From NCBI GenBank assembly GCA_016208485.1, contig JACQXY010000010.1, positions 1,431 to 65,430 on the forward strand: a DNA stretch of 64,000 nucleotides. Direction: 5' to 3'. How positions within the stretch are numbered: the stretch's first letter is position 1; every line of letters starts with the position of its first letter. This DNA comes from Acidobacteriota bacterium (GTDB taxonomy: Bacteria; Actinomycetota; AC-67). The notes below the pieces were generated by a model, which did no database searches, was not told the origin of the DNA, and was given only the letters and a program-made list of their open reading frames with translations. The position numbers and the translations under genes are program-made. This document shows positions 14,015 to 60,763 of this stretch, piece by piece.

Positions 14015-14400
14015 CGGAGGCTCCTCACCAGCAGCCGCCCCATGAAGTAGGTGGTCGGGATCATCAGCAGGACCCAGACCGAGACGACCGCCGCGAGCAG
14101 TTGCTGGTGGCGGTCGGCGAGGCGCGGGAAGAAGTCGATCGCCACGATCCGAAGGCCGTTCAGGGCGTGGAAGAGAACCATCGCCGCCAATCCCATCTCG
14201 AGTAGGCGGATGAGAGGGTTGTGGTAGACCGCGACGACCCGGTTGAAGACCTCGGGGCCGAACCCGACGAGCGCGGTGTCCAGGATGTGCGCGAAAAGGA
14301 AGAGGAGAACTCCGACCCCAGTGATGCGGTGCAACGCCCACGCCCACTGGCCCTGTCCGCCGCGGTAGACGGTCCCGAGGCGTCCGGGAACTGGTGCCAA
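14011..14400 (-). CDS. sdhC: Succinate dehydrogenase cytochrome b556 subunit
   Basis: TVYRGGQGQWAWALHRITGVGVLLFLFAHI haem-ligand His region. Start assigned to the TTG at 14400, 11 nt after an AAGGAGG RBS; the start is uncertain. Confidence 0.65.
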   Translation of the reverse strand: MAPVPGRLGTVYRGGQGQWAWALHRITGVGVLLFLFAHILDTALVGFGPEVFNRVVAVYHNPLIRLLEMGLAAMVLFHALNGLRIVAIDFFPRLADRHQQLLAAVVSVWVLLMIPTTYFMGRLLVRSLR

Positions 14401-15146
14401 GGCTTTCGGATCCTCCTTGCGGCGCGCCGCGCCGCCGTCCGGATACGGCCTCACGGCCGCTCCAGAATGGGAACATATCAGCGTTCGGGCCGGGAGTCGA
14501 AACGGCGCGCGCGCGCGGCGCGCCCCGCCTCGGTCTGCGGGGGGAGTCCACGTCCCGCTCGATGGCGGTGAGCGCGGCCGCGCGGATCGTCTCGATCGGA
14601 TCATCGGTGGTCAGTCCCGCTTCTCCGAGCGCGGCGATCACCGCGTCGATTCCGTGTTCCATCGCGACGAAGGCGTTCACGTCGACGTCGACGGTGGCGC
14701 GCGGCGGCGCGTAGAAGCCGAGCGCCAGGGCGCCTCCGATCGCGTAGTCGATGTCGCGACGTTCGAGGGCGTCGGCGACCGCCAGGGCGACGTCGGCGGC
14801 GGTGGGCGTCTCAGGCATCGCGGCAGGCTGCCAGCCGGCGAAGAAGCGATTCCGTCGAGGGGGGGGACGGGGTCGATCCGGCGAAGGCGCTGTTCCCGAT
14901 CCGGCGCGCCTTCCAGAAGCTGCATTGCCGCGCGGCACGCGGCCTGGATGGCGCCGGCGCGCTCCGCGATCGAGCGGCCCTGCGACGAGGGCGCCTCCTC
15001 GGGTCGCGGCCAGGGTCGCGCGCGGGCCATGATTCGAGTCTAGAGGCCCCGGGGCGGCGTCACAACGAATGCGGCCGGCGGGGGCCGGTCTCCTGCTCGC
15101 GGGCGGATTGCTCAACCCCGCGATGCCCCAGCGCGGGGCCACCGCG

Positions 15147-16302
15147 CTACTCGCTCTCGAATTGATGGCTGCCGAACTTCAACGTTCGACTGTTCTCGGT
15201 CACGGTGCGGACGATCTGATCCGAGGCGCCATCCGGGAGCAACGCCTCGATCTCGAGGGTGACCGTGACCTCCGCGCCCACCTGACCGACCAAGTGCGCG
15301 ACTACCTCGTCGGCGATGCGGCTCGCGTCGCGCCCGACGCGCGCGGGATCGAGCCGGACGGTTCCGTGGAACCGGTGAGGCAGCGGCGCAACCGCCGCAT
15401 CAGGCGCCGCGTCCGTCGCCTGAGTGGGCTTGGCGCCGGAGGAGGCGGCGGGAGGCGCTCCGGTACCGGGCTCGCCGTTCGGGATCGCCGCCGGTGTTTC
15501 CGCGTCCATCTGCCTCCGGGCCACCTCCGGCTTCACCAGCAGCCCGGCGCCGTCCGCCGTGAGCATCACCACCTGCCCGCCGCGCAAGCCGCGATAGCGG
15601 CCGGCGCCCTCGTCGTAGCTCTCGGCGTACGCGAACGTCTCCGACTGCCACGTGAGGAGCGCCATGCCGTCGCGGGCCGCCTGTGCCAGCACCTCGGGCC
15701 GGGCGAGGCGTGGCAGGTAGAGGTAGCGCGCGAAGTCCTCGACGAGCTGGCGGATCGCGACATCGTCGCCGCGCCACAGCGGCACATCGTCCAGGTGCTT
15801 GCGCAGGACGGTCGAGCCGAGCAAGGAGAGCAGCAACCGCGCGCGGGTGGTCGGCGTTCTCGGCGCACGCGCGCCGCCAGCTCTGCCAGATCTCATCGCG
15901 CGCGGCCTGCAGGACGGTCTCGTTGGTGGTGTTCTCCCACTGCACGAGGTCCTCGATCAGCTTGAACAGGCGTTTGCGCTCCTTCTCCTGGGCCTTCTCG
16001 GTCGGGAACAGATCTGGGTACGACGACGGGTCGTCCACCATCTGCGAGAAGATCACCGCGCGCGCGGCCGCCAGCGGCCGCCGGGCCCACCACAGGTGCA
16101 GCGTCGAGGGATGCCCACGCCGGATGGACTTCTCGCGCGCCGACGCCTTGTTGATCGCCTCCAAGGGCAACGCGACTTCGATGAGTTTCTTCTTCGTGGT
16201 CACGTTGTCCCCCCGCATCGGATGATCACTCCCGCCGCCCGGATGAAACTCGGATGGTTTCCCGCGCGCCGAGGGGCCGCCGGGATCGGATGACCTCGTC
16301 AT
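15147..16302 (-). pseudogene. Internally deleted defence-gene remnant: the N-terminal about 140 aa of a DUF1156-family DNA methyltransferase fused out of frame to the C-terminal about 230 aa of a DUF499-like ATPase
   Basis: Frame 1 (16302 to about 15880) contains [49 protein letters not shown], the DUF1156 signature. Frame 2 (15896 to 15147) contains [34 protein letters not shown]...TVTENSRTLKFGSHQFESE, a DUF499-like C-terminus. The ATG at 16302 overlaps the stop of the upstream gene (ATGA). Confidence 0.6.
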
Positions 16303-17480
16303 ACGGCTCCCCCGCCCTTCCCTGGTTTACGATTACGGCGATCGACTTGACGATTGGTTGACGATTCGGCCGTTCCCTTGAGGCGATAGCGGGTCGATCG
16401 GCCTGCCCCCACCCTCTCGGCCAGGCCCAGCTCGACGAGCTTCCCGAAGTCGCTGGAGGTGATCGTACGGGTGACGCCGAACTCCGCTTCGCACTGCCTG
16501 CTCGTAAGCTCTTCGCCCTCGACCAGCTGGAGCATCATCCTGCGCTGGCGTTCGCTCAGTTGCGCTTCCACGGCAGGGGTCACCAGGAGCCGGCTCTCGG
16601 GCGCGCGCAGGCGGTCGATGTCCTCGCCCGGTCCCGGGAAGGTGACCTGGAAGTATCCGGTGTCGGTGCCGATCAGCGGCCTGTCCAGCCCGTGATCGAG
16701 CATCTGGTCGGTCATGCGGCGGAAGCCGCTGCCGCGCTCCTCGATACGATGAAAGTAGGACAGGCACTGCGCGAGGACCGGGTTGCGCGAGCAGGGGCGG
16801 TACTTGCCCTTGCGGAGGTTGGCGAGCGTGATGGGCGCGGGCGGCAGGCCGGGGCTCGAGACGACCACCCGGTCGGCGAACACCTCGAGAAGGATCTTGC
16901 GGCCGGCATCCTCGTACTGGCGGTGCGCCACCGCGTTCACCAGCGCCTCGCGCAGGCCATCGACGGGATACTCGTCGAGCCGCACCCGGTTCAGGCCCAC
17001 GATCCTCATCGGGTGCCGAGTGTTGCGGTCGATGAAGGCAATTGCGCGGTCGATCGCGAGCGGCATCGGCGCCCGGACGTCCTCGTGGTCGCGCGGGTCG
17101 CCGTCGGGCCCGGCGCCCCGGTAGGCGTCGGCCAGAATGCGGCACTGGGGAAACACCGCTGAGGGATCCTTGGCCAGGAGCACGATCCCGGCTGCGGTGG
17201 CATAGTGCTCGCCCGAGGCGGGCTCATGCCAGACGAGACCGCGCAACGCGGCGCCCGCCAGGAGATCCTCCTCGGAGATGTCCGCCCCTTCGCGCCCCTC
17301 GGCGGCGGCAAGCAGCCGGCGAACCACGTCGTGGTCGAGGTCCTGCCAGCGGATCCGGTCGAGGGAGCGGGACTCGAAGGGGGACGTGGCCTCGATGGTC
17401 TGGCGGGCGATCTCGTTCTCGTCGCTGGTGGGAGCGATGCCGAAGCGATCCAAGAACAGCTTCACCAGCGCGGCGCGCAC
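16299..17480 (-). CDS. HATPase_c_4 (divergent ATPase-like) protein with a C-terminal winged-helix domain, lacking the usual AlbA_2 N-terminus
   Basis: [39 protein letters not shown] motif of HATPase_c_4 family transcription-regulator-like proteins. C-terminal w[32 protein letters not shown] start immediately after the DUF4062 gene stop. Confidence 0.65.
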
Positions 17481-17486
17481 TTCCCT

Positions 17487-17905
17487 CTAGAGTTCGATGA
17501 CGTTGCCGAAGCGCTTGTACTTGGGCCCGTCTGCGTCGAGTTCGGCCAGCAGGGCGACCGTTCCTGCTTCGCGCTTGACGTGCCGCTCGCCCCGGATGAA
17601 GGCGAGCACGGGGAGTCCCTTGGCCTTCGCGTGGCGATACTCGGCGTGGGGGTGATGGATAGCTCGCCGACCGGCGTGCCGTACTCGACGCCCACGATCA
17701 ACAGGTAGACCTGGCAGGCGTCGAGGGCTTCGAAGCAGCCCGCCAGGGCCTTGCTCGGGGACGCCGGCTCGTACTCGTAGAGTACCGGCGTGCAGTGCGC
17801 CGACAGAAAGGAATCGGTGTTCAGCAGGTTCTGGACGATGAGCCGCTCGTCCTCGAGTTCCTTCTGCGCGGAGCTGACGAACACGCGGAGCTTCGCGGTC
17901 ATCAC
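17487..17905 (-). pseudogene. DUF4062-domain protein gene, apparently frameshifted in a G5 homopolymer (17648-17652)
   Basis: The first about 77 codons (MTAKLRVFVSSAQKELEDERLIVQNLL...VYLLIVGVEYGTP) match DUF4062. The rest of the protein (HAEYRHAKAKGLPVLAFIRGERHVKREAGTVALLAELDADGPKYKRFGNVIEL) continues in another frame after the run gtggggg. Confidence 0.5.
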
Positions 17906-17985
17906 TTGGCGTCCGCCCGCGCGGCCGCCTCGTCGATCGCCTCCAGGGGCAACGCGACCTCGATCAGTTTCTTGCGAATGGTCAT
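17905..17985 (-). pseudogene. 27-codon stub of a second DUF1156-type methyltransferase gene ([27 protein letters not shown]-stop)
   Basis: Diverged copy of the [14 protein letters not shown]-terminus. Its ATG overlaps the ParA-like gene stop (ATGA). It is truncated where the DUF4062 gene begins. Confidence 0.4.
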
Positions 17986-18968
17986 GGCAACGTCGCTCGC
18001 GCTTGCTTGGCGACCTCGATCGCGAGGGTGCGGAAGTCTCGACGGCAGTCCTGGACGGCCTGGGCGTGACCGCCGATCGCTCCGTCTGCGGGTTTGAGGA
18101 GGAACATCGGCTTGCGCGCTTCCTGAGCGAGGGGCATCAGGCTCCGGTAGTGCTTCAGGGTGGACAAGCAGTGAGGATCCCGGGCGATGGTGACGTCTGC
18201 CTGGGGGATCGCCTCCCCCAGGACCGCCTCCCGGTAGACGCCCGGGATCCTCGCCATCCACTTCCCGTAGGCCTTCACCGGTCGATCGAGGCGGACGGCA
18301 TGCTGCATCACGACGTAGCCAAGCGGCTCCATCCGGCCATCCGGCAGGTCCAACTCCGCCGGGCGCTTCTTGAGTCGCTCCTCCCATCCGCTGCGCCACT
18401 CCCGCAAGCGTGGCCCGAGATTCTGGAGGCCCTTGAGGGAGAACAGATCCGGAGCGAGGGGGATGGCTACGTGGTCGGCGGCGATCAGGGCCGCGCGGTT
18501 GATCGCACCGAGATTCGGGCCGACGTCGATCAGGACGATGTCTGCCTCGCGCAGTTGCGCCGCGCGCGCAAGGATCTGGTGGAAAGCTCCGATCACTCGG
18601 AAAGCCCGGGTCTTGCCCTCGAGGCAGTACGGCCACTGCTGGCTCAGCTCGTCCTCGAATCCCGAGAGCGCGAGATCCCCGGCCAGAAGCCCGATGCCGG
18701 CGATGTCCTCGACATGCGGATCGGCGATCCCGCCCTTGCCTTCCAGAAGCGGGAGCAACGGCCCGAGGATGGTTCTGCCCGGCATCCCGTTCGGCCAGAG
18801 CGATTCGAGCGCATCCTCATCCAGGAACATAGTTGTGAGATTGGCCTGCGGGTCGAGATCCGCCGCGAGCACAGAGAGGCCGAGTTCGGTGTACATCCAG
18901 GCCAGGTGGTAGACGAGCGAGGTCTTTCCGATGCCGCCCTTGTTGTTGAAGAACGCAACCGCCTTCAA
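17982..18968 (-). CDS. ParA/MinD-like P-loop ATPase (deviant Walker A)
   Basis: KAVAFFNNKGGIGKTSLVYHLA Walker A KGGxGKT; 328 aa. Coupled (ATGA) to both the upstream AlbA_2 gene and the downstream DUF1156 stub. Confidence 0.8.
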   Translation of the reverse strand: MKAVAFFNNKGGIGKTSLVYHLAWMYTELGLSVLAADLDPQANLTTMFLDEDALESLWPNGMPGRTILGPLLPLLEGKGGIADPHVEDIAGIGLLAGDLALSGFEDELSQQWPYCLEGKTRAFRVIGAFHQILARAAQLREADIVLIDVGPNLGAINRAALIAADHVAIPLAPDLFSLKGLQNLGPRLREWRSGWEERLKKRPAELDLPDGRMEPLGYVVMQHAVRLDRPVKAYGKWMARIPGVYREAVLGEAIPQADVTIARDPHCLSTLKHYRSLMPLAQEARKPMFLLKPADGAIGGHAQAVQDCRRDFRTLAIEVAKQARATLP

Positions 18969-20156
18969 GGGGCTGACCTCACGGTGACGGCGACGAGCGT
19001 GGGCTCAAACCCAAACTCGGGCGGTGGGTTGCCGTTGTCGGCAAGAGCCTGTCGCGCCAGCGGAATTCCGAGACCGAAGCGCTGCGCAAAGCCTAGGTTG
19101 TACATGATCTCGGCTACGAGCGGGTTGCGGTAGTCGGTAACCCCCGCGCCGAAGTTCTGCGGCGTAACCTGGCCGTACAAGCTCCCGGGACTCTGGAACT
19201 CGATCCGTTCGGTGTACCAGTAGATCCGAGCCGGCGCGTTGGTGGATTCGTAGGCCCGATGCATGACCGCGTTGCGCGCGAGTTGTTGAAGGGCGGGAAG
19301 CGGATAGTCGGGCCGGCGGATCTCGCGCGGTCCCGAGGTCACCTCGGTGCGCACGGAGACGTTGATTTCCAGGAGATCGTCTAGCCGTCGCAGCACGTCC
19401 TCGAGCCGTCCGGTAAGGGTCTTCTGGTCTCGGATGGGGTCGGTTAGCGAGGATCCAGCGATGCGCAGGAACTGCACATAGGCCCCGGGCACCCAGCTTT
19501 GCGGATCACGACCCAAGCCGAGCATCGCACCGTAGGTGGGTGCATCGCCGGTCGTCAGACGCAGCGACCGGAGCTGCTGCTCGGTAGGGCGCTGGTTCTC
19601 CTCGAGGACATCGATGGCGATGGCGCGCGGCAGGTACTGTGTGCGGGCGTAGTCAAGATCGAGATCGTTGAGCGCTGCGCCCGACACCGGCCGCAGGTCA
19701 AAGGGAAGGTCGCGCGCGCGCCGGCGCTCGGCGAGCCTGATCTCTTCTTCGGGCGTAGCAAGGCGCACGGTGGGGCCGACTCTTGCCCAGACCCGCCCTT
19801 GATAGCGCACGGGGGGATAGGAACTCGGATGAACCGTCACGACGGCTACGTCGCAGCCGTCCATTGTGCGTTTCTCGATGTGCAGAGAGGGAAGAGGCAG
19901 GATGTTGCCGTCGTCGCGCATCGCGGCCAGATCGCGCAGGAGTTGATCCCCAATTTCCAAGGAAGCGCACCGGCCGTCGTCCTCGACGCCGATCAGGATG
20001 ATGCCCGGCCGGCCCCGGCCGGCGAGGTCGTTCGCGAATGCGCAGATGTTTCGGCGGATGCCGCTCCGGTCGGCAGCGGACCGTTTGCGCTCGACGAGCT
20101 CCGACTCGACCTCAAGACACATCCGGCGCAGCTCGTCGTCGCTGTATACGCTCATG
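18965..20156 (-). CDS. AlbA_2 (Schlafen-like) plus HATPase_c_4 domain protein, a putative nucleic-acid sensor/regulator
   Basis: N-terminal MSVYSDDELRRMCLEVESELVERKRS...IILIGVEDDG matches AlbA_2. C-terminal LQQLARNAVMHRAYESTNAPARIYWYTERIEFQSPGSL matches HATPase_c_4. Start refined to the ATG at 20156. Confidence 0.7.
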
Positions 20157-20377
20157 CTGGGTATCCTTTCACAACCGCCGCTTTCGCACGTGCGGCGGTT
20201 CCGCTGATCGCCTCGAGCGGCAGGGTGCCTTCGGTGAGGTTCTTCCCATCCGGCATCAGGCGATGCCCCCCTCCCAAGTCCGGTCAAGCGGCTGCAAGGA
20301 GTCGCAGATTGCCCAGGAACTGCGCGCGGGTGCAATCCTCCGTGCAATCCCGGGACGCCCCCCTCTAGCGGCCATAC

Positions 20378-22012
20378 TCATCGTGGATTCCCCGCTCGTT
20401 CGAGCAGCTTGGCGAAATCGTAGTTGACGCTGGTCACACCGAAGTCGGGCTCGCGCTGGAAGGGGCGCCGCAGGTAACGCACGCGGTGGGTGTCGCCATT
20501 CAGGAACTCGACCAGAGCGAGGATGAAGTCGTCCGGTTTGTTGAGGCTGGTGAGGATCTCGTTCTTGGTCACCGTGACGGTGTCCGCGCCGGACACCCGG
20601 CCCTTCACCTCGATGAACCGCAACTTGCCGGTGCCGGGGGCGCGGCTCTCGACGTCGTAGCCGAGTCTCTCGAATTCGCGGTCGGTCGGCTCGAAGCCCA
20701 GGCCGCGCTCAATCTCCATCACGATCTCTCTCGCGCGCGCGGCGCTCGCCTGGGTGTCGGTGGGACTCGCGGGCCCGGCGGGCGCGCGACCGGTCATGGC
20801 GGCGACCAGCCCGATCGGCACGACCAGCAGACCGCCCAGCACCACCGGGGGCAGCGCCGAGATCTGGGCCTCTCGATCCAGCTCCGCGAGGCGCCTCTCG
20901 AGCCGGGCCTGCATCTCGTCGGCGCGGCGGCGTGCCTCCTGGGAGTTGAGCCGCGCGCCGGCCCTGCCGGCTTGTTCCTGGAGCTTGAGCTGCTCGGCGC
21001 GGTGGTCCCAGTAGGTGATCTCCTTGGTCAGTCGGTCCATCACGGCGGCGCGGGTCTTCTCGATCCACGCAAGGCGCCGGCCGCGCACCTCGGCGATGTG
21101 CTCGGGCACGACGTGCTCGATGGCGTGGCCCTGCGCCTTCTGCTCCAGCGCGCGTGTGATCCAGGCGCACTCGGGGCGGGCAAGGAGGTTGACCACCGGT
21201 GGCTCATCCTCGGCAAGTGGGCGGTAGTCGAGATACGGCGCGTAGTACGGGTGGCGCGTGCGCCCCGCGGCGTCCATCTCGACGTGGAGCATCCGCCGCG
21301 AGATCGTGCGGCGCTCGCCGGAGGGGAGAACGCTCGCATCCTGGATGGCGTGTTCGAGGAAGAGGAGCACGCGCGGGCTCGTGCCCGGGTCGCGCTCGTC
21401 TACCAGCACGGTGCCGCGCTTCAGGAGATCGCGGTGACGCTCGAGCGTGAGGTCGAGCACCGCGTCGAGCAGCGGGTGGCCGGGGCAGACGAAGGCCGCC
21501 AGAGGCTGACCCGGCGGCGCGATTAGGTCCTTCTCGAAGGTGATGCGCTCGTAGCGCGCGAGCACCGGATCGCCGGCGCCGATCTGGCGGTCACGGCTCC
21601 GGACCGGCGCGGGCACGTGGGTGATCTCGTAGCGACGCGGCTCGCGCTGGCGAACGGTGCCGCCGAGGCGACGGAAGGCCTCGAGGAAGAACGACTCGAT
21701 GTAGTGTGGCTGCAAGCGCCGCGCCTCGGCGCGCTCCATGTCCTCGCGCACGCGCGCGACGCGCCTGGAGTCCATCGCGTCGTGTGCGAGCGCCCGGTCC
21801 TCGATGAGTCCCTGCAGGTGCGCCCGGTCCACACGTGGTTCGTCGTGCCGGTAGAGGATCTCATCGGCCACGCGACCGTTCGGCCCGCGGTACACCAGGG
21901 TCAGGGCGTCCGAGCCGTGCCACTCGACGCCGACGACGGTGACTGCCGCATCCGGCAAGATGCCCCGGAGGGTCGCGTCGGGTTGGAGGTCCTCGAGCCT
22001 CAGCAAGGGCAC
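20378..22012 (-). pseudogene. C-terminal half of a defence-type helicase-related protein ending in a DUF3883 domain; the helicase core is absent
   Basis: C-terminus GLGFEPTDREFERLGYDVESRAPGTGKLRFIEVKGRVSGADTVTVTKNEILTSLNKPDDFILALVEF matches DUF3883. Only 219 nt of non-coding DNA separate it from the divergent mutase gene, so no N-terminal ATPase region can be present. Confidence 0.5.
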
Positions 22013-22231
22013 GCTCCCATCAGCGCCTGCCGCGAACGCGGGGGTCGCAGCTCGGATTCGCTTCGGGGCGCACCCATGAGACGGGCTCCATCCATGCGGG
22101 GCAGTGGATTTTCGGGCTCGCGCCAGGATAACACCTGGCTACGACAGTTCCGGCTCCGGATGGTCCGCGATTTGCCGCCCGTAGCCGTCCGTTCTCGCCG
22201 CTCCGCTGCGAGCCCGTAGAATGCGATCAAG

Positions 22232-23830
22232 ATGCCCGCCGGCGAGCGCTCCACCCCTTCGGGGATCCCCGTCGAGCCGGTCTACGGGCCGGAGTCCCTG
22301 CCGGGGTTCGACCCGGCCGCGGAACTCGGGAGCCCCGGCGAGTTCCCTTACGCGCGCGGCGTTTACCCGGACATGTACCGGGGCCGCGTCTGGACCATGC
22401 GCCAGTACGCGGGCTACGCGAGCGCGCGCGAGTCCAACGCCCGCTACCGCTACCTCCTCGAGCACGGCCAGACGGGCCTGTCGGTCGCCTTCGATCTCCC
22501 GACACAGATGGGACATGACTCCGACGACCCGGTCGCCGCGGCCGAGGTCGGCAAGGTTGGAGTCGCGATCGACTCCCTGGCGGACATGAGGATCCTGTTC
22601 GACGAGATCCCGCTCGACCGGGTCTCGACGAGCATGACGATCAACGCGCCGGCCTCGGTGCTGCTGCTCCTCTACGAGCTGGTCGGCGAGGAGCAAGGGG
22701 TCGCGCCGGAGCGGCTCACCGGCACGATCCAGAACGACATCCTGAAGGAGTACGTGGCGCGCGGCACCTACATCTTTCCGCCGGAGCCCTCCATGCGCCT
22801 GGTTACCGACACCTTCGCGTACTGCGCCGAGCGCATGCCGCGCTTCAACATGATCTCGATCTCCGGCTATCACATGGCCGAGAAGGGCGCGACCGCCATC
22901 CAGGAGGTCGCCTTCACCCTGGCCGATGCGATCGCATACGTGGAGGCCGGCGTGCGGGCCGGGCTCGCGGTGGACGATTTCGCGCCGCGCCTTTCGTTCT
23001 TCTTCGTGGCGCGCGAAAGCCTCTTCGAGGAGGTCGCGAAGTTCCGCGCGGCGCGCCGCCTGTGGGCGCAGGTCATGCGCGAGCGGTTCGGCGCGCGGGA
23101 CCTGCGGTCGCTCGCGCTCCGCTTTCACACCCAGACGGCCGGCGTGCAGCTCACCGCCCAACAGCCGGAGAACAACATCGTGCGCGTGGCGATCCAGGCG
23201 CTCGCCGCGGTCCTCGGCGGGACGCAGTCCCTGCACTGCAACGCGTTCGACGAGGCGCTCGCGCTGCCGACGGAGCGGGCGGCGAAGATCGCCCTCCGGA
23301 CCCAGCAGATCCTCGCGCACGAGACCGGCGCTACAGACACAGCCGACCCGCTCGGCGGCTCGTGGTTCGTCGAGTCGCTCACGCGCGAGGTGGAGGCCGG
23401 CGCGCGGGCTTATCTCGGGGAGATCGAGCGGCGCGGGGGCGCCGTCGGCTGCATCGAGTTCATGCAGCGCGAGATCGAGGAGTCCGCCTACCGCGAGGCG
23501 CAGGACGTCGAGGCCGGCCGGCGGGTCGTCGTCGGCCTCAACCGCTACCTCGAGCCGGGCGGCGGCGAGGTCGAGACCCTGAGGGTGGACCCCGGCGTGC
23601 AGCGGGAGCAGGCCGGCCGGCTCGCCGAGGTGCGCGCCGGCCGCGACGGCGCGACGGTCGCAACCGCGCTCGAGGATCTGCGCGCGGCGGCGAAGGGGAC
23701 TGAGAACCTGCTTCCCCCGATGCGCCAGGCCCTCCGGCGGATGGCGACGGTCGGCGAGGTCTGCGGGGTCCTGCGCGAGGAGTTCGGGGCCTGGCGTCCG
23801 GCGACGCATGGGAGAGCCGGCCGCCCGTGA
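22232..23830 (+). CDS. Methylmalonyl-CoA mutase family protein, substrate-binding TIM-barrel subunit only (no B12-binding domain in this ORF)
   Basis: 532 aa with mutase large-subunit motifs ([76 protein letters not shown]). Confidence 0.85.
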
Positions 23831-25038
23831 GAGGGATCTCGTTCCGGGCCCGGGCGATGGCGCTCGTCGGGCTCTGCGTGCTCCTGGTCGGCACCGCTCT
23901 CGTCCTGATCGAGAGCGGGCGGATCAGGGAGCTGATTCTCAGCGAGAGGGCCGCCCAGGTGGCTCGGGTCGCCCGCCACGTGGAGGAGGGAGCGACCAAG
24001 GCTTACCTCTCCGGGGGCCGGGAGGCCGCCCTCGCGTTCCTGCGCCAAGAGGCGGTCCATGAGGTCCTGTCGCTGGGAGCGGAGAAGGTCATCATCACCG
24101 ACGGCGCCCGAAAGATCCTCGCCCACTCCGACCCCGCGCTCGTGGGGCGGATCTACTCCGGGGAGGAGGTCGCCGAGGTCCTGGAGAGCGGCCGGCCGGT
24201 GACCGGCGCGGAGACGGCTTCGGAGTTCGCCTTCGCCGTGCCCCTGGCCATCCCCGGTGGCCCTCCGGGTGCGTTCGAGGCCGAGGTCGATATTCCGGCG
24301 CTCTACTCGACGATCGCCACGGTCAGGCGGCAGGCGCTGCTCGCGAGCCTGATCGTCCTCACGGTGGCCCTCCCGCTCACCTCCTGGTCGGCGAACCGCC
24401 TGCTCGGCCGGGTCTACGACCGGGAGCGCCGAGCCTCCGAGCGCCTGAGGGAGGCGGAGCGCCTGAAGAGCGACCTGGTGGCGGCCGTCTCCCACGAGTT
24501 CCGGACGCCGCTCGCCGCGATCATCGGATATCTGCGAACCCTGCTTCGCTCCGGACTGGACGCGACCGCCGAGGAGCGGGCGGCCTTCCTCGATTCCGCC
24601 GAGCGCCAAGCGGGCAGGCTCGAGCGGCTCGTCGAGACCCTCCTGGCGACGGCCGGGATCGAGCGCGCCGGCCGCGTCTCGCCGGAGCCGGTCGATCTGG
24701 CGGAGCTCGGGGAGGATCTCCGGAGAGAGTTCTCCGCCCGCGCTCCGGCGCACCGCTTCGAGCTCGCTCTGCCGGCCGGCCTTCCCCAGCTCGCGACCGA
24801 GAGGGAGAAGGTGCACCTGATCCTCGCGAACCTGCTCGACAACGCGATCAAGTTCTCCCCGCCCGGCTCGACGGTGAGTCTTGCGGCCGAAGCGCGCCCG
24901 GGGGAGATCCGCCTGGCGATAGCGGATGAAGGCCCGGGCATCGCTCCGGAGAAGCTCCGGACGCTGTTTCGCCCGTTCGCGCAGCTCGACTCGTCGGCGA
25001 CGAGGAAGGCGGGGGGCCTTGGGAAAGCGCCGGGATAA
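23827..25038 (+). pseudogene. Sensor histidine kinase, 3'-truncated inside the HATPase_c G2 box (ends ...RKAGGLG then KAPG-stop)
   Basis: TM helix plus HisKA (AAVSHEFRTPLAAIIGYL), N-box (LANLLDNAIKF) and G1 box (DEGPGIAPE). The expected GxGLGL and the C-terminus are missing. Group II intron sequence follows immediately. Confidence 0.65.
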
Positions 25039-25039
25039 G

Positions 25040-26948
25040 CCGGCATGGAGTGGAGGATGAAAGAGCCTTACGGGGAAGGAGTAGCGACCCACCCCGGCCC
25101 CGAGTCATGCGGCTCCGCTCGTGAGGGTGGGGCTGAAGCGTTGACAGGGGGACGTGCAGGCCGGCTATTGAGCCGCGAAATCACCTCTTCGGGGCGCCGA
25201 CGTTGTCCAAAGGTGCGGAAGGCAACACCTGACGGCGCGCTTTCGCGAGTGCTGTCAGGGCCCCGCGCGGTCAGAGACCCTGTGCATGTGCGTCACGCTC
25301 CATGCGCGAGAACCGGGAGGGCTCACGGCCAGACGGCCCCCGGACGGTGGGGGTCGCCTCGCATGGGGAAGGCGGTGGCTGTAATCCCATGATGCACGGC
25401 CGTGAGCAGTCGGATGGCCTCGTAGTACCTGCGAAGCCCCGGAACAACGCCGGCGGGGTGCCGGCGGCGGACGGGGTGGAGGGAAGGGGGTCAGCCAAGA
25501 GGAACCCGCAACAGCCCACCACGCGCCGGACGCAGAGCCGGGCAAGCGTGCCTGCGGGGTTGGAGCGGGTGCGTCAGGCTGCTCGGAAGGATAAGGACGC
25601 GAGGTTCACGGCGCTTCTGCATCACGTCACGCCGGAGCTGCTCCGGGAGTCCTACCTCGGCTTGAAGCGGAGGGCGGCTCCTGGGGTGGATGGGGTGACG
25701 TGGCAGCAGTACGGGCAGGACCTGGAGGCCAACCTCCGGGATCTGCATGCTCGGCTGCATCGGGGAGCGTACCGACCGAAACCGTCCCGCAGGGCGTATG
25801 TGTCCAAGGCCAACGGGCGGATGCGTCCGCTTGGGATCGCCGCAGTGGAGGACAAGGTCGTCCAAGCCGCGGTGGCTACGGTGCTGAGCTCTGTGTGGGA
25901 GCAGGATTTCATCGGCTTCTCCTACGGGTTCCGGCCCGGTCGCAGCCCGCATGACGCGCTGGATGCGTTGGCGGCTGCGGTCAAGCGGGGGAGGGTGAAC
26001 TGGATCCTCGACGCGGACGTTCGTGACTTCTTTTCGGCCGTCAGCCACGAATGGACGCAGCGGTTTGTCGAGGATCGGATCGCGGACCCGCGGATCCTGC
26101 GGCTCATCCGTGCCTGGTTGACCGCAGGGGTGATGGAGGACGGGAAGGTGACGTGGGAGCAGGCAGGGACCGTTCAGGGCGCGACGATCTCGCCCCCGCT
26201 CGCGAACCTGTATCTGCATCACGTCTTCGACCGGTGGGCTCACGAGTGGAGGGGGCGGCACGCGAGGGGCAAGGTTTATCTCGTGCGGTTCGCCGACGAC
26301 ATCATCGTGGGCTTCGAGCACCGGGAGGACGCCGAGCGGTTCCGGGGAGAGCTGCGAGAGCGGCTCGCGGCCTTCGACCTGGAGCTGAACCCGGAGAAGA
26401 CGCGCCTGATCGAGTTCGGGCGGTTCGCCGCTCGTAACCGGGCGGCGCGCGGACTGGGCAAGCCGGAGAACTTCACCTTTCTGGGGTTCACGCACATCTG
26501 CGGGACCTCCCGGAAAGGTGGGTTCCAGCTCGTTCGGCAGACCAACCGGACCCGGCTGCGGAGAAAGCTCCGCGAGATCAGGCGGGAGCTTCGTCGCCGG
26601 ATGCACGCTTCCATCCCGGAGCAAGGCGCATGGCTGCGACGGGTGGTTCAGGGACACTTTAACTACTACGCGGTCCCGACGAACATCCACGCACTCAGCG
26701 CCTTCCGGAAACAGGTCGGCCGCCACTGGATACGGACGCTTCGGCGCCGGAGCCAGAGGGGCCGCCGACTCACCTGGCAGCGGATGTATCCATGGATCGA
26801 CCGCTGCCTTCCGCGCGCTCGCATCCTGCATCCCTGGCCCGAGGACCGCTTCGACGCTCGACTCAAGGCAAGAGCCGTATGAGGCAACCCTCACGTACGG
26901 ATCCGTCCGGGGGGCCCCGGGTAACCGGGGTCCCTACCGGGCCTCGAC
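25040..26948 (+). mobile_element. Bacterial group II intron (about 1.9 kb) with an RT/maturase ORF in domain IV; boundaries approximate
   Basis: Domain V-like hairpin GAGCCGTATGAGGCAACCCTCACGTACGGATC at 26872-26904 (AGC triad). Domain VI-like GNRA-capped hairpin CCCGG-GTAA-CCGGG with a bulged A near 26936. An IEP ORF is present. The 25045-25392 ORF (MKEPYGEGVATHPGPESC...) looks like a domain-I translation artefact. Confidence 0.65.
25389..26882 (+). CDS. Group II intron-encoded reverse transcriptase/maturase (no endonuclease domain evident)
   Basis: RT motifs APGVDGVTWQQY, RRAYVSKANGRMRPLGIAAVEDKVVQ and FADDIIV (the YADD equivalent), plus the maturase X region. N-terminus QSDGLVVPAKPRNNAGG is typical of bacterial IEPs. 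The ORF stop lies inside domain V. Confidence 0.85.
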   Translation: MMHGREQSDGLVVPAKPRNNAGGVPAADGVEGRGSAKRNPQQPTTRRTQSRASVPAGLERVRQAARKDKDARFTALLHHVTPELLRESYLGLKRRAAPGVDGVTWQQYGQDLEANLRDLHARLHRGAYRPKPSRRAYVSKANGRMRPLGIAAVEDKVVQAAVATVLSSVWEQDFIGFSYGFRPGRSPHDALDALAAAVKRGRVNWILDADVRDFFSAVSHEWTQRFVEDRIADPRILRLIRAWLTAGVMEDGKVTWEQAGTVQGATISPPLANLYLHHVFDRWAHEWRGRHARGKVYLVRFADDIIVGFEHREDAERFRGELRERLAAFDLELNPEKTRLIEFGRFAARNRAARGLGKPENFTFLGFTHICGTSRKGGFQLVRQTNRTRLRRKLREIRRELRRRMHASIPEQGAWLRRVVQGHFNYYAVPTNIHALSAFRKQVGRHWIRTLRRRSQRGRRLTWQRMYPWIDRCLPRARILHPWPEDRFDARLKARAV

Positions 26949-34743: not shown

Positions 34744-34923
34744 ATGGCTGCCCCGGAGTCCAAATGGGCGCCATCGTATCTTCTTATCGACAAGCGCAGC
34801 GGGGAACGTCAGCGCGATTATGAGAAGTTCCTCAACAACGGATCGGACATTGCGGATCCGTTGCCGGGTAGTGAGGAGTCGCTGGAGCAGGCCGACCGCT
34901 TGGCACCGGGAAGTCCGTCGTAG
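34744..34923 (+). CDS. Small hypothetical protein (59 aa) in the low-GC island
   Basis: GGAGG 8 nt upstream of the ATG. Non-biased composition (MAAPESKWAPSYLLIDKRSGERQRDYEKFLNNGSD...). Below the ORF-track length cutoff. Its 3' end overlaps the gene B tail on the opposite strand. Confidence 0.3.
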   Translation: MAAPESKWAPSYLLIDKRSGERQRDYEKFLNNGSDIADPLPGSEESLEQADRLAPGSPS

Positions 34924-35854
34924 GCCGCGAAGAAGTAGCCGCGCTCACTTGACCGGGCGGCGGAGTCCTACCATCCACATCGCTTGCTTTCCCCGGGCCG
35001 AAGTCCCCCGTTAGTGCCCCAAGTGCGAACGCGGCAAGCATCCCACAGATGCATGCAAAGAGGATGCCCTTCCACAGAAGCAGCCTGAGCCCCGCGACTG
35101 TCGCCCGCTCCCTGACCGCGAGAAACCCTGAGAACGGTCCCGCGAGACCGCTCAGGGCGAGGGCGACGTTCGGCTGGAGTTTCGGAGTATCGCTTAGAAC
35201 GGCCCACCAGAGAATGGCCGTGACTGCTGCCGCGAAGGCCGCACCTGCGACGTAGAGGGCTGCTACTTCGAGCTTCAGCTTGTAGAACACTTGCAGACGG
35301 ACGATCTCGCGGGTCTTCGAGGAGGGCTTTGGGGTCTTCGCGGAAGGATCAGGGGTTGGCGCCGGTGGCACTCGTCGAAGGACCCTCGCCCGGAGGCGCC
35401 GTGTGCCATGCGTGATCGCCCGTGCCGGCAGTCCAAGGGTTCGGCGTGCCAGCCTCATCCATCCCTTGGGGTGCGCCGGGGGCTGGCGATTGAGGTCGTC
35501 GATTAGGCGCTGGAATTCCGCTCGGGTCTTCGTTGTGTAGAAGACCTGCAGCTCGTAAGACTCCGAGTACTCGATGCCAAAGAGATCCCGGAGTCCGACC
35601 GGTCCGACTCGCGTATGGTTGCCGAACTGCGCCTCGGTGTTTCGTGCCTTGAGGCGCACAGCGGCGGTATCAGGCGACGACACTTCGATGTGCGTTCCTT
35701 GGGCATCGCCTATGACAACTGCGTATCGGTGCTGCAGACCGCCCAGGCGGCAGGCCTGGCCAAGCGGTAGTGGCGGCCGCTTCGAATCTTCATGTCGCTT
35801 TCCGATCGGTACCGTCTGGGTGAGCTTCGCAATGTACGCCTCGCCGATGCGCAC
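34832..35854 (-). CDS. Hypothetical protein B (340 aa): about 190-aa N-terminal soluble domain, three predicted TM helices and a Pro/Ser/Thr-rich tail
   Basis: Low-GC (about 55%) region. TM segments LEVAALYVAGAAFAAAVTAILWWAVL, NVALALSGLAGPFSGFLAV and GLRLLLWKGILFACICGMLAAFALGAL. Starts 21 nt after gene A stop on the same strand. Confidence 0.55.
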   Translation of the reverse strand: MRIGEAYIAKLTQTVPIGKRHEDSKRPPLPLGQACRLGGLQHRYAVVIGDAQGTHIEVSSPDTAAVRLKARNTEAQFGNHTRVGPVGLRDLFGIEYSESYELQVFYTTKTRAEFQRLIDDLNRQPPAHPKGWMRLARRTLGLPARAITHGTRRLRARVLRRVPPAPTPDPSAKTPKPSSKTREIVRLQVFYKLKLEVAALYVAGAAFAAAVTAILWWAVLSDTPKLQPNVALALSGLAGPFSGFLAVRERATVAGLRLLLWKGILFACICGMLAAFALGALTGDFGPGKASDVDGRTPPPGQVSAATSSRPTTDFPVPSGRPAPATPHYPATDPQCPIRC

Positions 35855-35875: not shown

Positions 35876-36895
35876 TCACGAGTGGGTGAATCGGCTAAGC
35901 GTGAAGAGAGCGTTTTCGCAAGCCCGGCTGCCCTCGCCAGGCGCGCTCTGTACGTCGACCAGCCCGGCGATCAATGCAAGGAATGCATCACACTGGCCGA
36001 AGAACGTTGTCAGCCGCTGAGTGATCGTTGGCGGTGACGTGCCCCACCCGCCTTTCATTCGGAGCTTGACGTAGTCGGGCAGGAGGAGGAGGGGGTTCGT
36101 CAGGGGATCTCTGAGGCCTTGGACATGTGCCCAGGTCAGATCGGGGCTGTCCTTGAGTCGCTCGGCGAGAGTGCGTCCACTCTCGATGAGACCCTGAACC
36201 CTGGCCTCCATAATTGCCGGTACATCGCTCATCTCGTCCTCCGCCTCCAGTCGCACCCGGCGGGCGAGGAAACGGATCATCTTGGCGGCCGAGTCCTCCG
36301 GCGCTTCAGACAGCAGTAGACACTTGGGCGTGAAGTTCGCGCGGTGAAGCAGGCCGCTCGGTATGCAGAATGCGAGTGCCCGGATGAGGGGAGTGACGAT
36401 TGGCGGCGAGAACTCTGAGGCAAGAAAGGTCGAGGCGGGCCAGATGCTCCTCGTAATGACGTAATGGGTTGCGAGTTCGCTGTTGCGAAAGCGGTTTCCG
36501 AGAGGGAGTCGGTGACCCCGGTGATCCTCAAGGTCCGTCCGCATGAGGACCTGCTTCGGGAGAGTTAGGAGCGGCACGGGGAGCGGGACCTCCTGTCCCA
36601 TCCAGCGTCTATCAGACTCCAGGAGCGGAGTGAGTTGGGTCACCAGCTCGGCGGATTCCGTAGGCTCTGACGTAACCTTCCTGGCAACTTTCATGGCGGA
36701 CATGGCGGCACGATGCACGAGGCTTGGTGGGATTCTGAATTGCAGGCTGATCCGGTCGCGATAGCATCGTCCATCTAGTGGAGTAATGGCCTCAACACGC
36801 CGCTCTCTCCATTGGTTTGGCTCGGCCAAGAGCGTCGCGGCCACTTCTCTGGCGAACAGCTCGCCGGACCTGTCCACCGAGCGCCTGAACTGCAC
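35876..36895 (-). CDS. Hypothetical protein A (339 aa), soluble, no recognisable motifs
   Basis: Low-GC island and balanced amino-acid composition, unlike the Ala/Arg-rich artefact ORFs. AT-richer promoter-like region upstream (36900-37000). Confidence 0.55.
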   Translation of the reverse strand: MQFRRSVDRSGELFAREVAATLLAEPNQWRERRVEAITPLDGRCYRDRISLQFRIPPSLVHRAAMSAMKVARKVTSEPTESAELVTQLTPLLESDRRWMGQEVPLPVPLLTLPKQVLMRTDLEDHRGHRLPLGNRFRNSELATHYVITRSIWPASTFLASEFSPPIVTPLIRALAFCIPSGLLHRANFTPKCLLLSEAPEDSAAKMIRFLARRVRLEAEDEMSDVPAIMEARVQGLIESGRTLAERLKDSPDLTWAHVQGLRDPLTNPLLLLPDYVKLRMKGGWGTSPPTITQRLTTFFGQCDAFLALIAGLVDVQSAPGEGSRACENALFTLSRFTHS

Positions 36896-60514: not shown

Positions 60515-60689
60515 GTAGGCCGCCCGCGGCGGAGTCGGGACCGGTACAATGGCGCGGTTCCGGAGGCGTCGCCTAGGCTGGTCTATGGCGCGGGATTGCT
60601 AATCCCGTTGGGGGGCAACTCCCTCGAGCGTTCAAATCGCTCCGCCTCCGCGTGTGAGAAGATGACGAGAGCGGCGTGCCGCTCTCCGA

Positions 60690-60763
60690 GCGCCCGTAGC
60701 TCAATTGGATAGAGCGTCGGACTACGGATCCGAAGGCTGGGGGTTCAAATCCCTCCGGGCGCA
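60690..60763 (+). tRNA. tRNA-Arg (anticodon ACG)
   Basis: Manual fold: acceptor GCGCCCG/CGGGCGC; D-arm GCTC-AATTGGATA-GAGC; anticodon stem TCGGA/TCCGA with loop CTACGGA; T-arm GCTGG-GGGTTCAAATCC-CTCCGGC region. Confidence 0.8.

Follow-up and report, generated by a model that had tools for sequence, protein, structure and literature searches.

Genes and features of the locus

The 64,000-nucleotide (nt) stretch of contig JACQXY010000010.1 (assembly GCA_016208485.1) analysed here, called the window below, carries at positions 15147-22012 the remnants of an Hma locus. Hma, which stands for helicase, methylase and ATPase, has been published as a defence system (PMC8565338; PMC11232893) and was lately renamed the Type-1 DUF499-centred BREX-related system (PMC12839542). 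According to the literature, HmaA is an SNF2 helicase fused to a PD-(D/E)XK nuclease that restricts foreign DNA, HmaB combines DUF1156 with an N6-adenine methyltransferase that marks self DNA, and HmaC is a DUF499 AAA+ ATPase with a scanning or sensing role. Because the G+C content of the window is ~70%, long spurious open reading frames (ORFs) are found on both strands; the meaningful genes of 15147-22012 all lie on the minus strand, in the order hmaA', stub 0, cassette 1, stub 1, cassette 2 and hmaB'::hmaC', the primes marking remnants. The features are as follows.

20378..22012, minus strand: hmaA remnant, a 544-residue ORF with the N-terminal ~60 residues joined in frame to the C-terminal ~484 residues
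20152..20255, minus strand: stub 0, a degenerate 34-codon hmaB 5' head (MPDGKNLTEGTLPLEAISGTAARAKAAVVKGYPA, then a stop codon), 18.1 bits against the HmaB-head profile
18965..20155, minus strand: cassette 1, gene 1, a 396-residue Schlafen/AlbA_2 plus HATPase_c_4 protein of the prokaryotic Schlafen-HisKinase type, apparently intact
17982..18968, minus strand: cassette 1, gene 2, a 328-residue ParA/MinD-type ATPase, apparently intact
17905..17985, minus strand: stub 1, a 27-codon hmaB 5' head from the canonical hmaB start, 31.2 bits against the HmaB-head profile
16299..17905, minus strand: cassette 2, a single DUF4062-HATPase_c_4-wHTH (winged helix-turn-helix) gene, now a pseudogene
16326..16366, minus strand: three copies of the repeat AATCGTMAA at the 3' end of cassette 2, with spacings of 11 and 21 nt
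15838..16203, minus strand: hmaB remnant, a DUF1156 head of ~118-122 codons counted from the likely native GTG at 16203
15147..15837, minus strand: hmaC remnant, the last ~232 codons of a DUF499-type ATPase, one base out of frame with hmaB'

The three core remnants are named HmaA, HmaB and HmaC by their PADLOC profile matches, and they stand on one strand in the order hmaA, hmaB, hmaC. Taken from these matches, the region appears to be one degraded Hma system with two embedded accessory cassettes. We are largely confident that it is a single dead Hma locus with two deletions and two embedded cassettes, accompanied by hmaB-head stubs that would be recombination or deletion scars. The initial annotation, made from the sequence alone, had described a decayed defence island of the DUF1156/DUF499 kind, which the PADLOC and Pfam matches support, and all of the domains it had named (DUF4062, HATPase_c_4, AlbA_2, DUF1156 and ParA-type) were found by Pfam profile search; hmaA at 20378-22012 was absent from it.

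For comparison, 80 related loci from many phyla (72-86% identity; one genome per species), labelled with L numbers, were obtained by scanning with the hmaA' protein. The full-length reference, L008, carries SNF2, Helicase_C and NOV_C in HmaA, DUF1156 in HmaB, and HEPN_Swt1 with DUF499 (residues 342-739) in HmaC, all assigned by Pfam.

Deletions in the core genes

The PADLOC HmaA match of 20378-22012 (E 9e-173) covers positions 691-1172 of the 1176-position profile. Pfam found NOV_C alone in the 544-residue ORF (7.6e-19), so that the NOV_C/DUF3883 PD-(D/E)XK nuclease domain is kept, and no match to the SNF2-type helicase core (SNF2-rel_dom/ResIII plus Helicase_C) was obtained there. Full-length HmaA proteins of L001 and L008 split in two when aligned to the window by tblastn, the N-terminal ~60 residues falling at 22012-21827 and the C-terminal ~500 at 21856-20381. 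In the DNA alignments, the left part matches relatives as far as 21833 and the right part from 21832 onwards; these two points lie 1950 nt apart in L009, that is, 650 codons, which indicates an in-frame deletion. Judging from L008 and L001, which carry the helicase core at this place, the deletion took the whole of it.

The 5' part of hmaB is well preserved as far as it goes. DUF1156 occupies residues 44-115 of the ORF at 15400-16302 (minus strand; Pfam E 1.8e-31, full profile 1-73), the PADLOC HmaB match of this piece (E 1.4e-60) spans positions 4-131 of 967, and the head scores 95 bits against the HmaB-head profile. By tblastn, hmaB' is 90% identical to residues 26-143 of the L001 HmaB, with homology running from ~16191 to 15838. 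The N6-adenine methyltransferase core is missing, since the homology to HmaB ends after about residue 118-131 of ~970.

The piece that follows, in the ORF at 15147-15896 (minus strand), matches the PADLOC HmaC profile at positions 710-940 of 941 (E 4.6e-43) and is 68-70% identical to the C-termini of the L001 and L008 HmaC proteins by tblastn, over 15836/15837 to 15150. The fragment gave no Pfam or NCBIfam match, the DUF499 AAA+ ATPase domain included; the Pfam DUF499 model stops short of this C-terminal part, which accounts for the lack of a direct match. Thus, the DUF499-like C-terminus that had been proposed here stands through the HmaC profile and its likeness to DUF499 proteins, but not through a Pfam DUF499 match as such.

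The hmaB match of the DNA runs down to 15838 and the hmaC match takes over at 15837, out of frame; the stretch lost between the two measures 5.2-6.5 kb in intact relatives. A single large internal deletion with an out-of-frame join had been predicted within 15836-15882, and the junction indeed falls inside this bracket. Both large deletion junctions, that of hmaA' and that of hmaB'::hmaC', are sharp and common to many alignments, with microhomology of at most 1-2 nt. Since the helicase core, the methyltransferase core and the ATPase domain have all been deleted, the Hma core is nonfunctional; from these domain losses no anti-phage activity is predicted for it, and cassette 1 is the only part of the locus that could still be working.

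A fusion of the same two genes is seen at 8650-9021 of L048, where ~48 codons of an hmaB head continue in frame into the final ~80 codons of hmaC (...WWARRPLAA joined to VLKRFHGTV...); it is evidently a second, independent deletion resembling that of the window. On the other side of the hmaC' stop, the ~690 nt at 14455-15146 (minus strand), between hmaC' and sdhC, are without a called gene in the Logan contig covering them. An ORF fragment (MPETPTAADV...DIDYAIGGALALGF...) is present in this gap and may represent one more decayed gene bordering the island; Pfam gave no match for it at ~14560-14815.

The junctions in other assemblies

Exact-protein look-ups with the AlbA_2 and hmaC' ORFs led to three Logan contigs. 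The first, L081 (SRR12113402), equals window 22418-17494 at 99.96% identity without gaps and crosses the hmaA' junction, both stubs and the frameshift of the DUF4062 gene, so that the same hmaA' structure and the same frameshift are found there. The second, L082 (SRR12113406), covers window 20369-18530, and the AlbA_2-HATPase_c_4 protein is identical in two Logan assemblies. The third, L083 (SRR12113402), equals window 15948-13496 at 99.8% and contains the hmaB'::hmaC' junction. Look-ups with the 544-residue hmaA' ORF and the 300-residue hmaB' ORF gave no exact match, probably due to the choice of other start codons by gene callers.

These contigs bear directly on the question whether the junctions and stubs arose as artefacts of assembly or binning, produced by chimeric joining of reads from different Hma loci of the metagenome. 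Such mis-joins are conceivable, as Hma genes are 72-86% identical across phyla and two near-identical loci can occur on one contig (L001/L006). At the same time, the contigs from SRR12113402 and SRR12113406 run gapless at 99.8-99.96% across the junctions, the stubs and the frameshift, which rules out an error peculiar to one assembler, and structures analogous to those of the window occur in unrelated assemblies. An artefact is hence scarcely credible.

hmaB-head stubs

A profile hidden Markov model (HMM) was built from 56 full-length HmaB proteins, using the N-terminal 45 residues of each, a head that is nearly invariant among them; the best match on reversed decoy sequences was 10.5 bits. 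Three hmaB heads are present in the locus (stub 0, stub 1 and hmaB'), and each cassette has a short hmaB stub ahead of it. Stub 1, which had been described as the cut-off 5' end of a methylase gene, scores well above the decoy maximum and is confirmed as such. The accompanying count of two methylase copies was right in that more than one ancestral hmaB is represented, but the third head, at 20255-20152, had been missed.

The DNA of stub 0 is 88% identical over 41 nt to the hmaB heads of L029/L002 (blastn, E 5e-5), with a tblastx match to the L021 head. The stub resembles a variant head subtype (...RKRKAPxGYPTT) seen in L021, L002 and L009, which differs from the subtype of stub 1 and hmaB'; a single gene therefore cannot have given rise to all the heads, and the locus holds remnants of at least two different hmaB lineages. 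In L081, stub 0 is called as a 34-residue gene. Its tail was also considered as an hmaA tail and rejected, since AlbA_2 genes elsewhere are not overlapped by an hmaA stop and the variant hmaB head fits throughout.

The junction of a ParA gene with hmaB that is seen at stub 1 has counterparts in L067, with an intact hmaB, and in L072, where a degenerate stub follows ParA. An origin of the stub 1 tail from the 3' end of hmaA was dropped for the window, and the claim of hmaA tails is kept only for L051, L072, L078 and L007.

Embedded cassettes

The cassette genes at 18965-20155, 17982-18968 and 16299-17905 sit between hmaA' and hmaB' and are oriented like them. In the ORF at 18965-20347, Pfam detected SLFN_AlbA_2 (1e-13) and HATPase_c_4 (4.9e-16), that is, an AlbA_2 domain fused to a GHKL-like domain, and full-length tblastn matches of this gene at 43-50% identity were found in L025, L072, L067 and L049. 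The second gene of cassette 1 matches AAA_31 (5.8e-25) and CbiA (2.3e-11) of Pfam, carries the deviant Walker A P-loop (KGGxGKT) in its N-terminus (FFNNKGGIGKTS) and has full-length matches in L067 (77%), L072 (66%) and L049 (59%); its NCBIfam matches of ParA type were all below their cut-offs.

Cassette 2 had been taken for two genes, one with DUF4062 and one with HATPase_c_4 and wHTH. It is a single broken gene: three-frame translation shows that its reading frame shifts near 17655 and is stopped in frame by a TAG at 17489-17487, and Pfam finds DUF4062 in 17462-17905 and HATPase_c_4 with a helix-turn-helix in 16299-17480. The conceptually repaired protein corresponds end to end to single ORFs of 528-533 residues in L062 (79%), L021 (80%), L048 and L010, and the L062 orthologue comprises DUF4062, HATPase_c_4 and a DIP2311-like_C wHTH domain (Pfam). 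No dedicated PADLOC v2 model exists for either cassette.

The repeat AATCGTMAA has three matches in the window, all of them at 16326-16366, against 0.08 expected. It is found at the same place and with the same spacing, in five copies each, in L062 (8776-8866) and L021 (12995-13106), at or just past the 3' end of the gene, and is possibly a binding array for the wHTH domain. A scan of 14400-22400 found no sigma-70-like promoter, an absence that says little in such a genome.

Start and stop codon overlaps

Several genes of the locus are linked by overlapping codons. The TGA that closes stub 0 shares bases with the ATG opening the AlbA_2 gene (ATGA), and the ParA-like gene starts on the stop of the gene before it. 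A second ATGA connects the end of the ParA-like gene with stub 1, whose ATG here is the canonical start of hmaB, and the DUF4062 gene starts right where stub 1 stops (GTGATG). In the related loci as well as in the window, stub ORFs mostly stop on, or a few bases from, the start of the next gene; where the next gene begins with ATGA, the chance expectation for such an ending is ~1/3. Ending at the next start codon, a stub ORF would keep the chain of overlapping stop and start codons along the operon, which suggests that stub frames may have been selected to keep translational coupling.

The two ATGA overlaps that had been reported ahead of the methylase copies are both present in the sequence, but the one at 16302-16299 does not mark the homologous hmaB start. 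In the alignment of 56 heads, the hmaB genes of relatives start 3-6 codons ahead of KKLIEV, a position equivalent to GTG 16203 of the window, and the 96-nt spacer between ATG 16302 and this GTG has no counterpart in the flank alignment of L062, L010 and L048. This spacer makes translational coupling for copy A doubtful.

The recurrence of an overlap between the regulator and the methylase was likewise borne out in part: the ParA stop and the hmaB start share GTGA in L067, where hmaB is intact, but this reflects no special link. The hmaA gene ends in ATGA or GTGA in 52 of 78 cases, whichever gene comes next (20381-20378 in the window), and so any following gene, hmaB or cassette, can start on its stop codon.

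Embedding and probable scars in related loci

Embedding, defined as more than 300 nt between hmaA and hmaB, was found in 50 of the 61 loci having both genes, and in nine loci hmaB comes directly after hmaA. Embedded genes have been reported in 62.7% of 1,485 Hma systems (Payne et al., bioRxiv 10.1101/2024.01.29.577857). They are diverse in our set, including ABC ATPases, DUF4276, sacsin-like giants and Schlafen-type genes, and the genes of the window cassettes are embedded, in other combinations, in L062, L021, L010, L048, L067, L072 and L049.

The region 15147-22012 had been interpreted as holding a separate kind of operon twice over, both times in decay, whose DUF1156 methylase and DUF499 ATPase would have a HATPase_c_4 sensor/regulator, accompanied by ParA or not, as their conserved, translationally coupled partner. 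The AlbA_2-HATPase_c_4 and ParA genes do stand directly upstream of intact hmaB in L067 (with the GTGA overlap) and near hmaB in L049, the DUF4062-HATPase_c_4-wHTH gene is directly upstream of hmaB in L062, L010 and L048, and genes of the HATPase_c_4 families match in about 17 of the 80 loci. However, the full arrangement of sensor/regulator, ParA, methylase and ATPase is present in L067, almost complete in L049 and combined with a stub in L072; the other embedded loci of the 50 carry different cassettes. The same HATPase_c_4 and ParA genes also follow hmaA, precede other cassettes or are absent, and their slot holds the other gene types listed above or, in the nine loci without embedding, nothing. 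Besides, ATG 16302 is not the homologous hmaB start, the locus is headed by an hmaA remnant, and Schlafen-HisKinase genes count in the literature as backup effectors that are independent (PMC12839542; PMC13056530). A distinct operon type is therefore very unlikely; the slot between hmaA and hmaB takes many interchangeable cassettes, of which the HATPase_c_4 and ParA genes make up two, and the framework is that of published Hma.

Stubs like those of the window are found upstream of a full hmaB in L014, L033, L035, L051, L055, L059, L062, L064 and L069, and L062 even shows the order of the window (stub, DUF4062-HATPase_c_4-wHTH gene, hmaB). An HMM of the last 30 residues of HmaA (decoy maximum 7.2 bits) revealed extra hmaA tails inside the embedded region of L078 (73.6 bits), L072 (62.3), L051 (57.9) and L007 (55.4). 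In L051, an hmaB head of ~9 codons runs directly into the hmaA tail, and in L072 the order is ParA, degenerate head stub, hmaA tail, ABC-ATPase cassette and hmaB. In total, hmaB-head or hmaA-tail fragments are present in at least 10 of the 50 embedded loci, and in L033 and L078 in addition.

A corresponding scan for hmaB tails returned mostly the ends of frameshifted hmaB genes, and only L033 and L040 look like real extra copies. In L033 (11557-14448), a frameshifted variant hmaB head and a 16-residue hmaB tail fragment are located just before a second hmaB, and in L040 (2881-6290) an extra hmaB tail separates two long hmaB ORFs.

Proposed origin of the stacked cassettes

The following course of events is proposed. 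Hma units of the form hmaA-cassette-hmaB, at first separate, would have become linked, either through recombination (unequal or illegitimate) or through the deletion of part of a tandem array; all DNA from an hmaB head up to where the following cassette starts would have been lost, leaving the stub as a scar, and the cassettes would have ended up stacked behind one hmaA. We infer that the hmaB stubs are what is left of former hmaB genes. Substrates for unequal recombination do exist, as near-identical Hma loci with the same embedded gene, L001 and L006, lie ~95 kb apart on contig CAWIQD010000006.1 (443938-465410 and 348649-370121). Extended to Hma in general, the proposal is a tentative one, somewhat short of an even chance in our estimation: hmaB-head stubs and the hmaA tails of relatives may be general footprints of cassette embedding and stacking, formed when unequal or illegitimate recombination, or the collapse of tandem systems, fuses units of the type hmaA tail-cassette-hmaB head, with the frames of the mini-ORFs kept for the coupling of stacked cassettes.

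Alternatively, cassettes could have been inserted into the 5' end of a resident hmaB, bringing or copying a fresh head, for example, by Campbell-type integration of a circle, in which case the stubs would be the duplicated target. The geometry of stub, cassette and hmaB fits such an insertion, the head is the most conserved block of the first 250 codons of hmaB (78-83% mean nucleotide identity), and the stubs of L059, L064 and L035 are, of 51 heads, closest to the hmaB of their own locus. Against this, stub 0 of the window belongs to a different head subtype, the breakpoints of the stubs vary from codon ~9 to ~45, and the extra hmaA tails beside the stubs of L051, L072, L078 and L007 are not expected from insertion into hmaB. 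Moreover, no recombinase gene is present in 15147-22012 according to the ORFs and Pfam. The hmaB head as a DNA attachment site was rejected, since its third codon positions are only 50-60% identical and it is thus conserved at the protein level only. Insertion into hmaB is accordingly regarded as unlikely.

The joining of units by recombination or deletion, which we prefer, has to be weighed against several observations that do not favour it or that narrow its basis. Scars are detectable in only about one-fifth of the embedded loci. The likeness of a stub to the hmaB of its own locus (95% in L059, 85% in L064 and 86% in L035) would fit local duplication as well as the fusion of units. In the window itself, the last ~10 codons of stub 1 score equally for hmaA-tail and hmaB-head ancestry in semi-global alignment, neither above shuffled controls; the apparent intactness of cassette 1 is judged solely by full-length alignment to relatives; and the window and the Logan contigs may share their source samples.

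The locus itself is of little weight, being a dead copy of a published defence system with embedded genes of a published style. At the same time, the Schlafen-HATPase_c_4 and ParA-like pair and the DUF4062-HATPase_c_4-wHTH gene are reasonable candidate defence genes, and the hmaB-head and hmaA-tail scars offer a cheap sequence marker by which the gain, stacking and swapping of embedded cassettes could be reconstructed. If true, the reading of the scars as footprints would give a concrete, testable mechanism for the embedding of defence systems, which the literature leaves unexplained.

Other features of the window

A histidine-kinase ORF and a group II intron (Rfam D1-D4-6, 197 bits) with its reverse transcriptase ORF are found on the plus strand (23827-25038, 25060-25280 and 25302-26882). 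The intron starts ~20 nt after the kinase ORF and seems to have interrupted the kinase gene, because the HATPase_c match of the latter stops at profile position 74 of 111. The segment 35001-37000 has a G+C content of 0.61-0.63 against ~0.70 elsewhere, contains two minus-strand ORFs of ~340 residues (34832-35854 and 35876-36895) and may be acquired DNA. Two adjacent tRNA genes (Rfam) are located at 60562-60650 and 60690-60763 (plus strand).

Comparison with known systems

The locus has the three gene families of Hma, ordered alike and likewise all on one strand, its hmaA' being 72-86% identical to relatives and its hmaB head 90% identical to that of L001. Unlike a working member of the system, it has all three genes truncated by deletions and is thus a remnant.

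The cassettes resemble the prokaryotic Schlafen-HisKinase proteins, which occur with or without a helix-turn-helix (PMC13056530): AlbA_2 and HATPase_c_4 are combined in the first gene of cassette 1, and HATPase_c_4 and wHTH in cassette 2. No architecture is commoner among the Schlafen defence proteins of prokaryotes than AlbA_2 combined with a histidine-kinase-like ATPase (PMC13056530), and Schlafen-HisKinase genes adjoin BREX or BREX-related loci in at least 1017 taxa (PMC12839542). The window differs in that its Schlafen gene is paired with a ParA-like ATPase and that cassette 2 has a DUF4062 domain where the Schlafen domain would be.

With integrons and other cassette arrays that have conserved flanks, the locus has in common interchangeable cassettes in one slot bounded by conserved sequence. 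In contrast to such arrays, it is without an integrase (no recombinase domain was found by Pfam in 15147-22012) and without an attC-like site, its junctions are irregular, with stub end points that vary, and its DNA is conserved no more than the protein requires.

Gene embedding in Hma as such is already known (10.1101/2024.01.29.577857; PMC12839542), and the arrangement of the window, with genes nested in the same orientation between hmaA and hmaB, is that of the "guilt by embedding" study (10.1101/2024.01.29.577857). No description of the boundary scars was found in the literature searched; in that study, pseudogenised loci were excluded and no mechanism of embedding was offered. What sets the present locus apart from the cassettes described there is the presence of hmaB-head stubs between its cassettes, together with the remnants of hmaA tails in its relatives.

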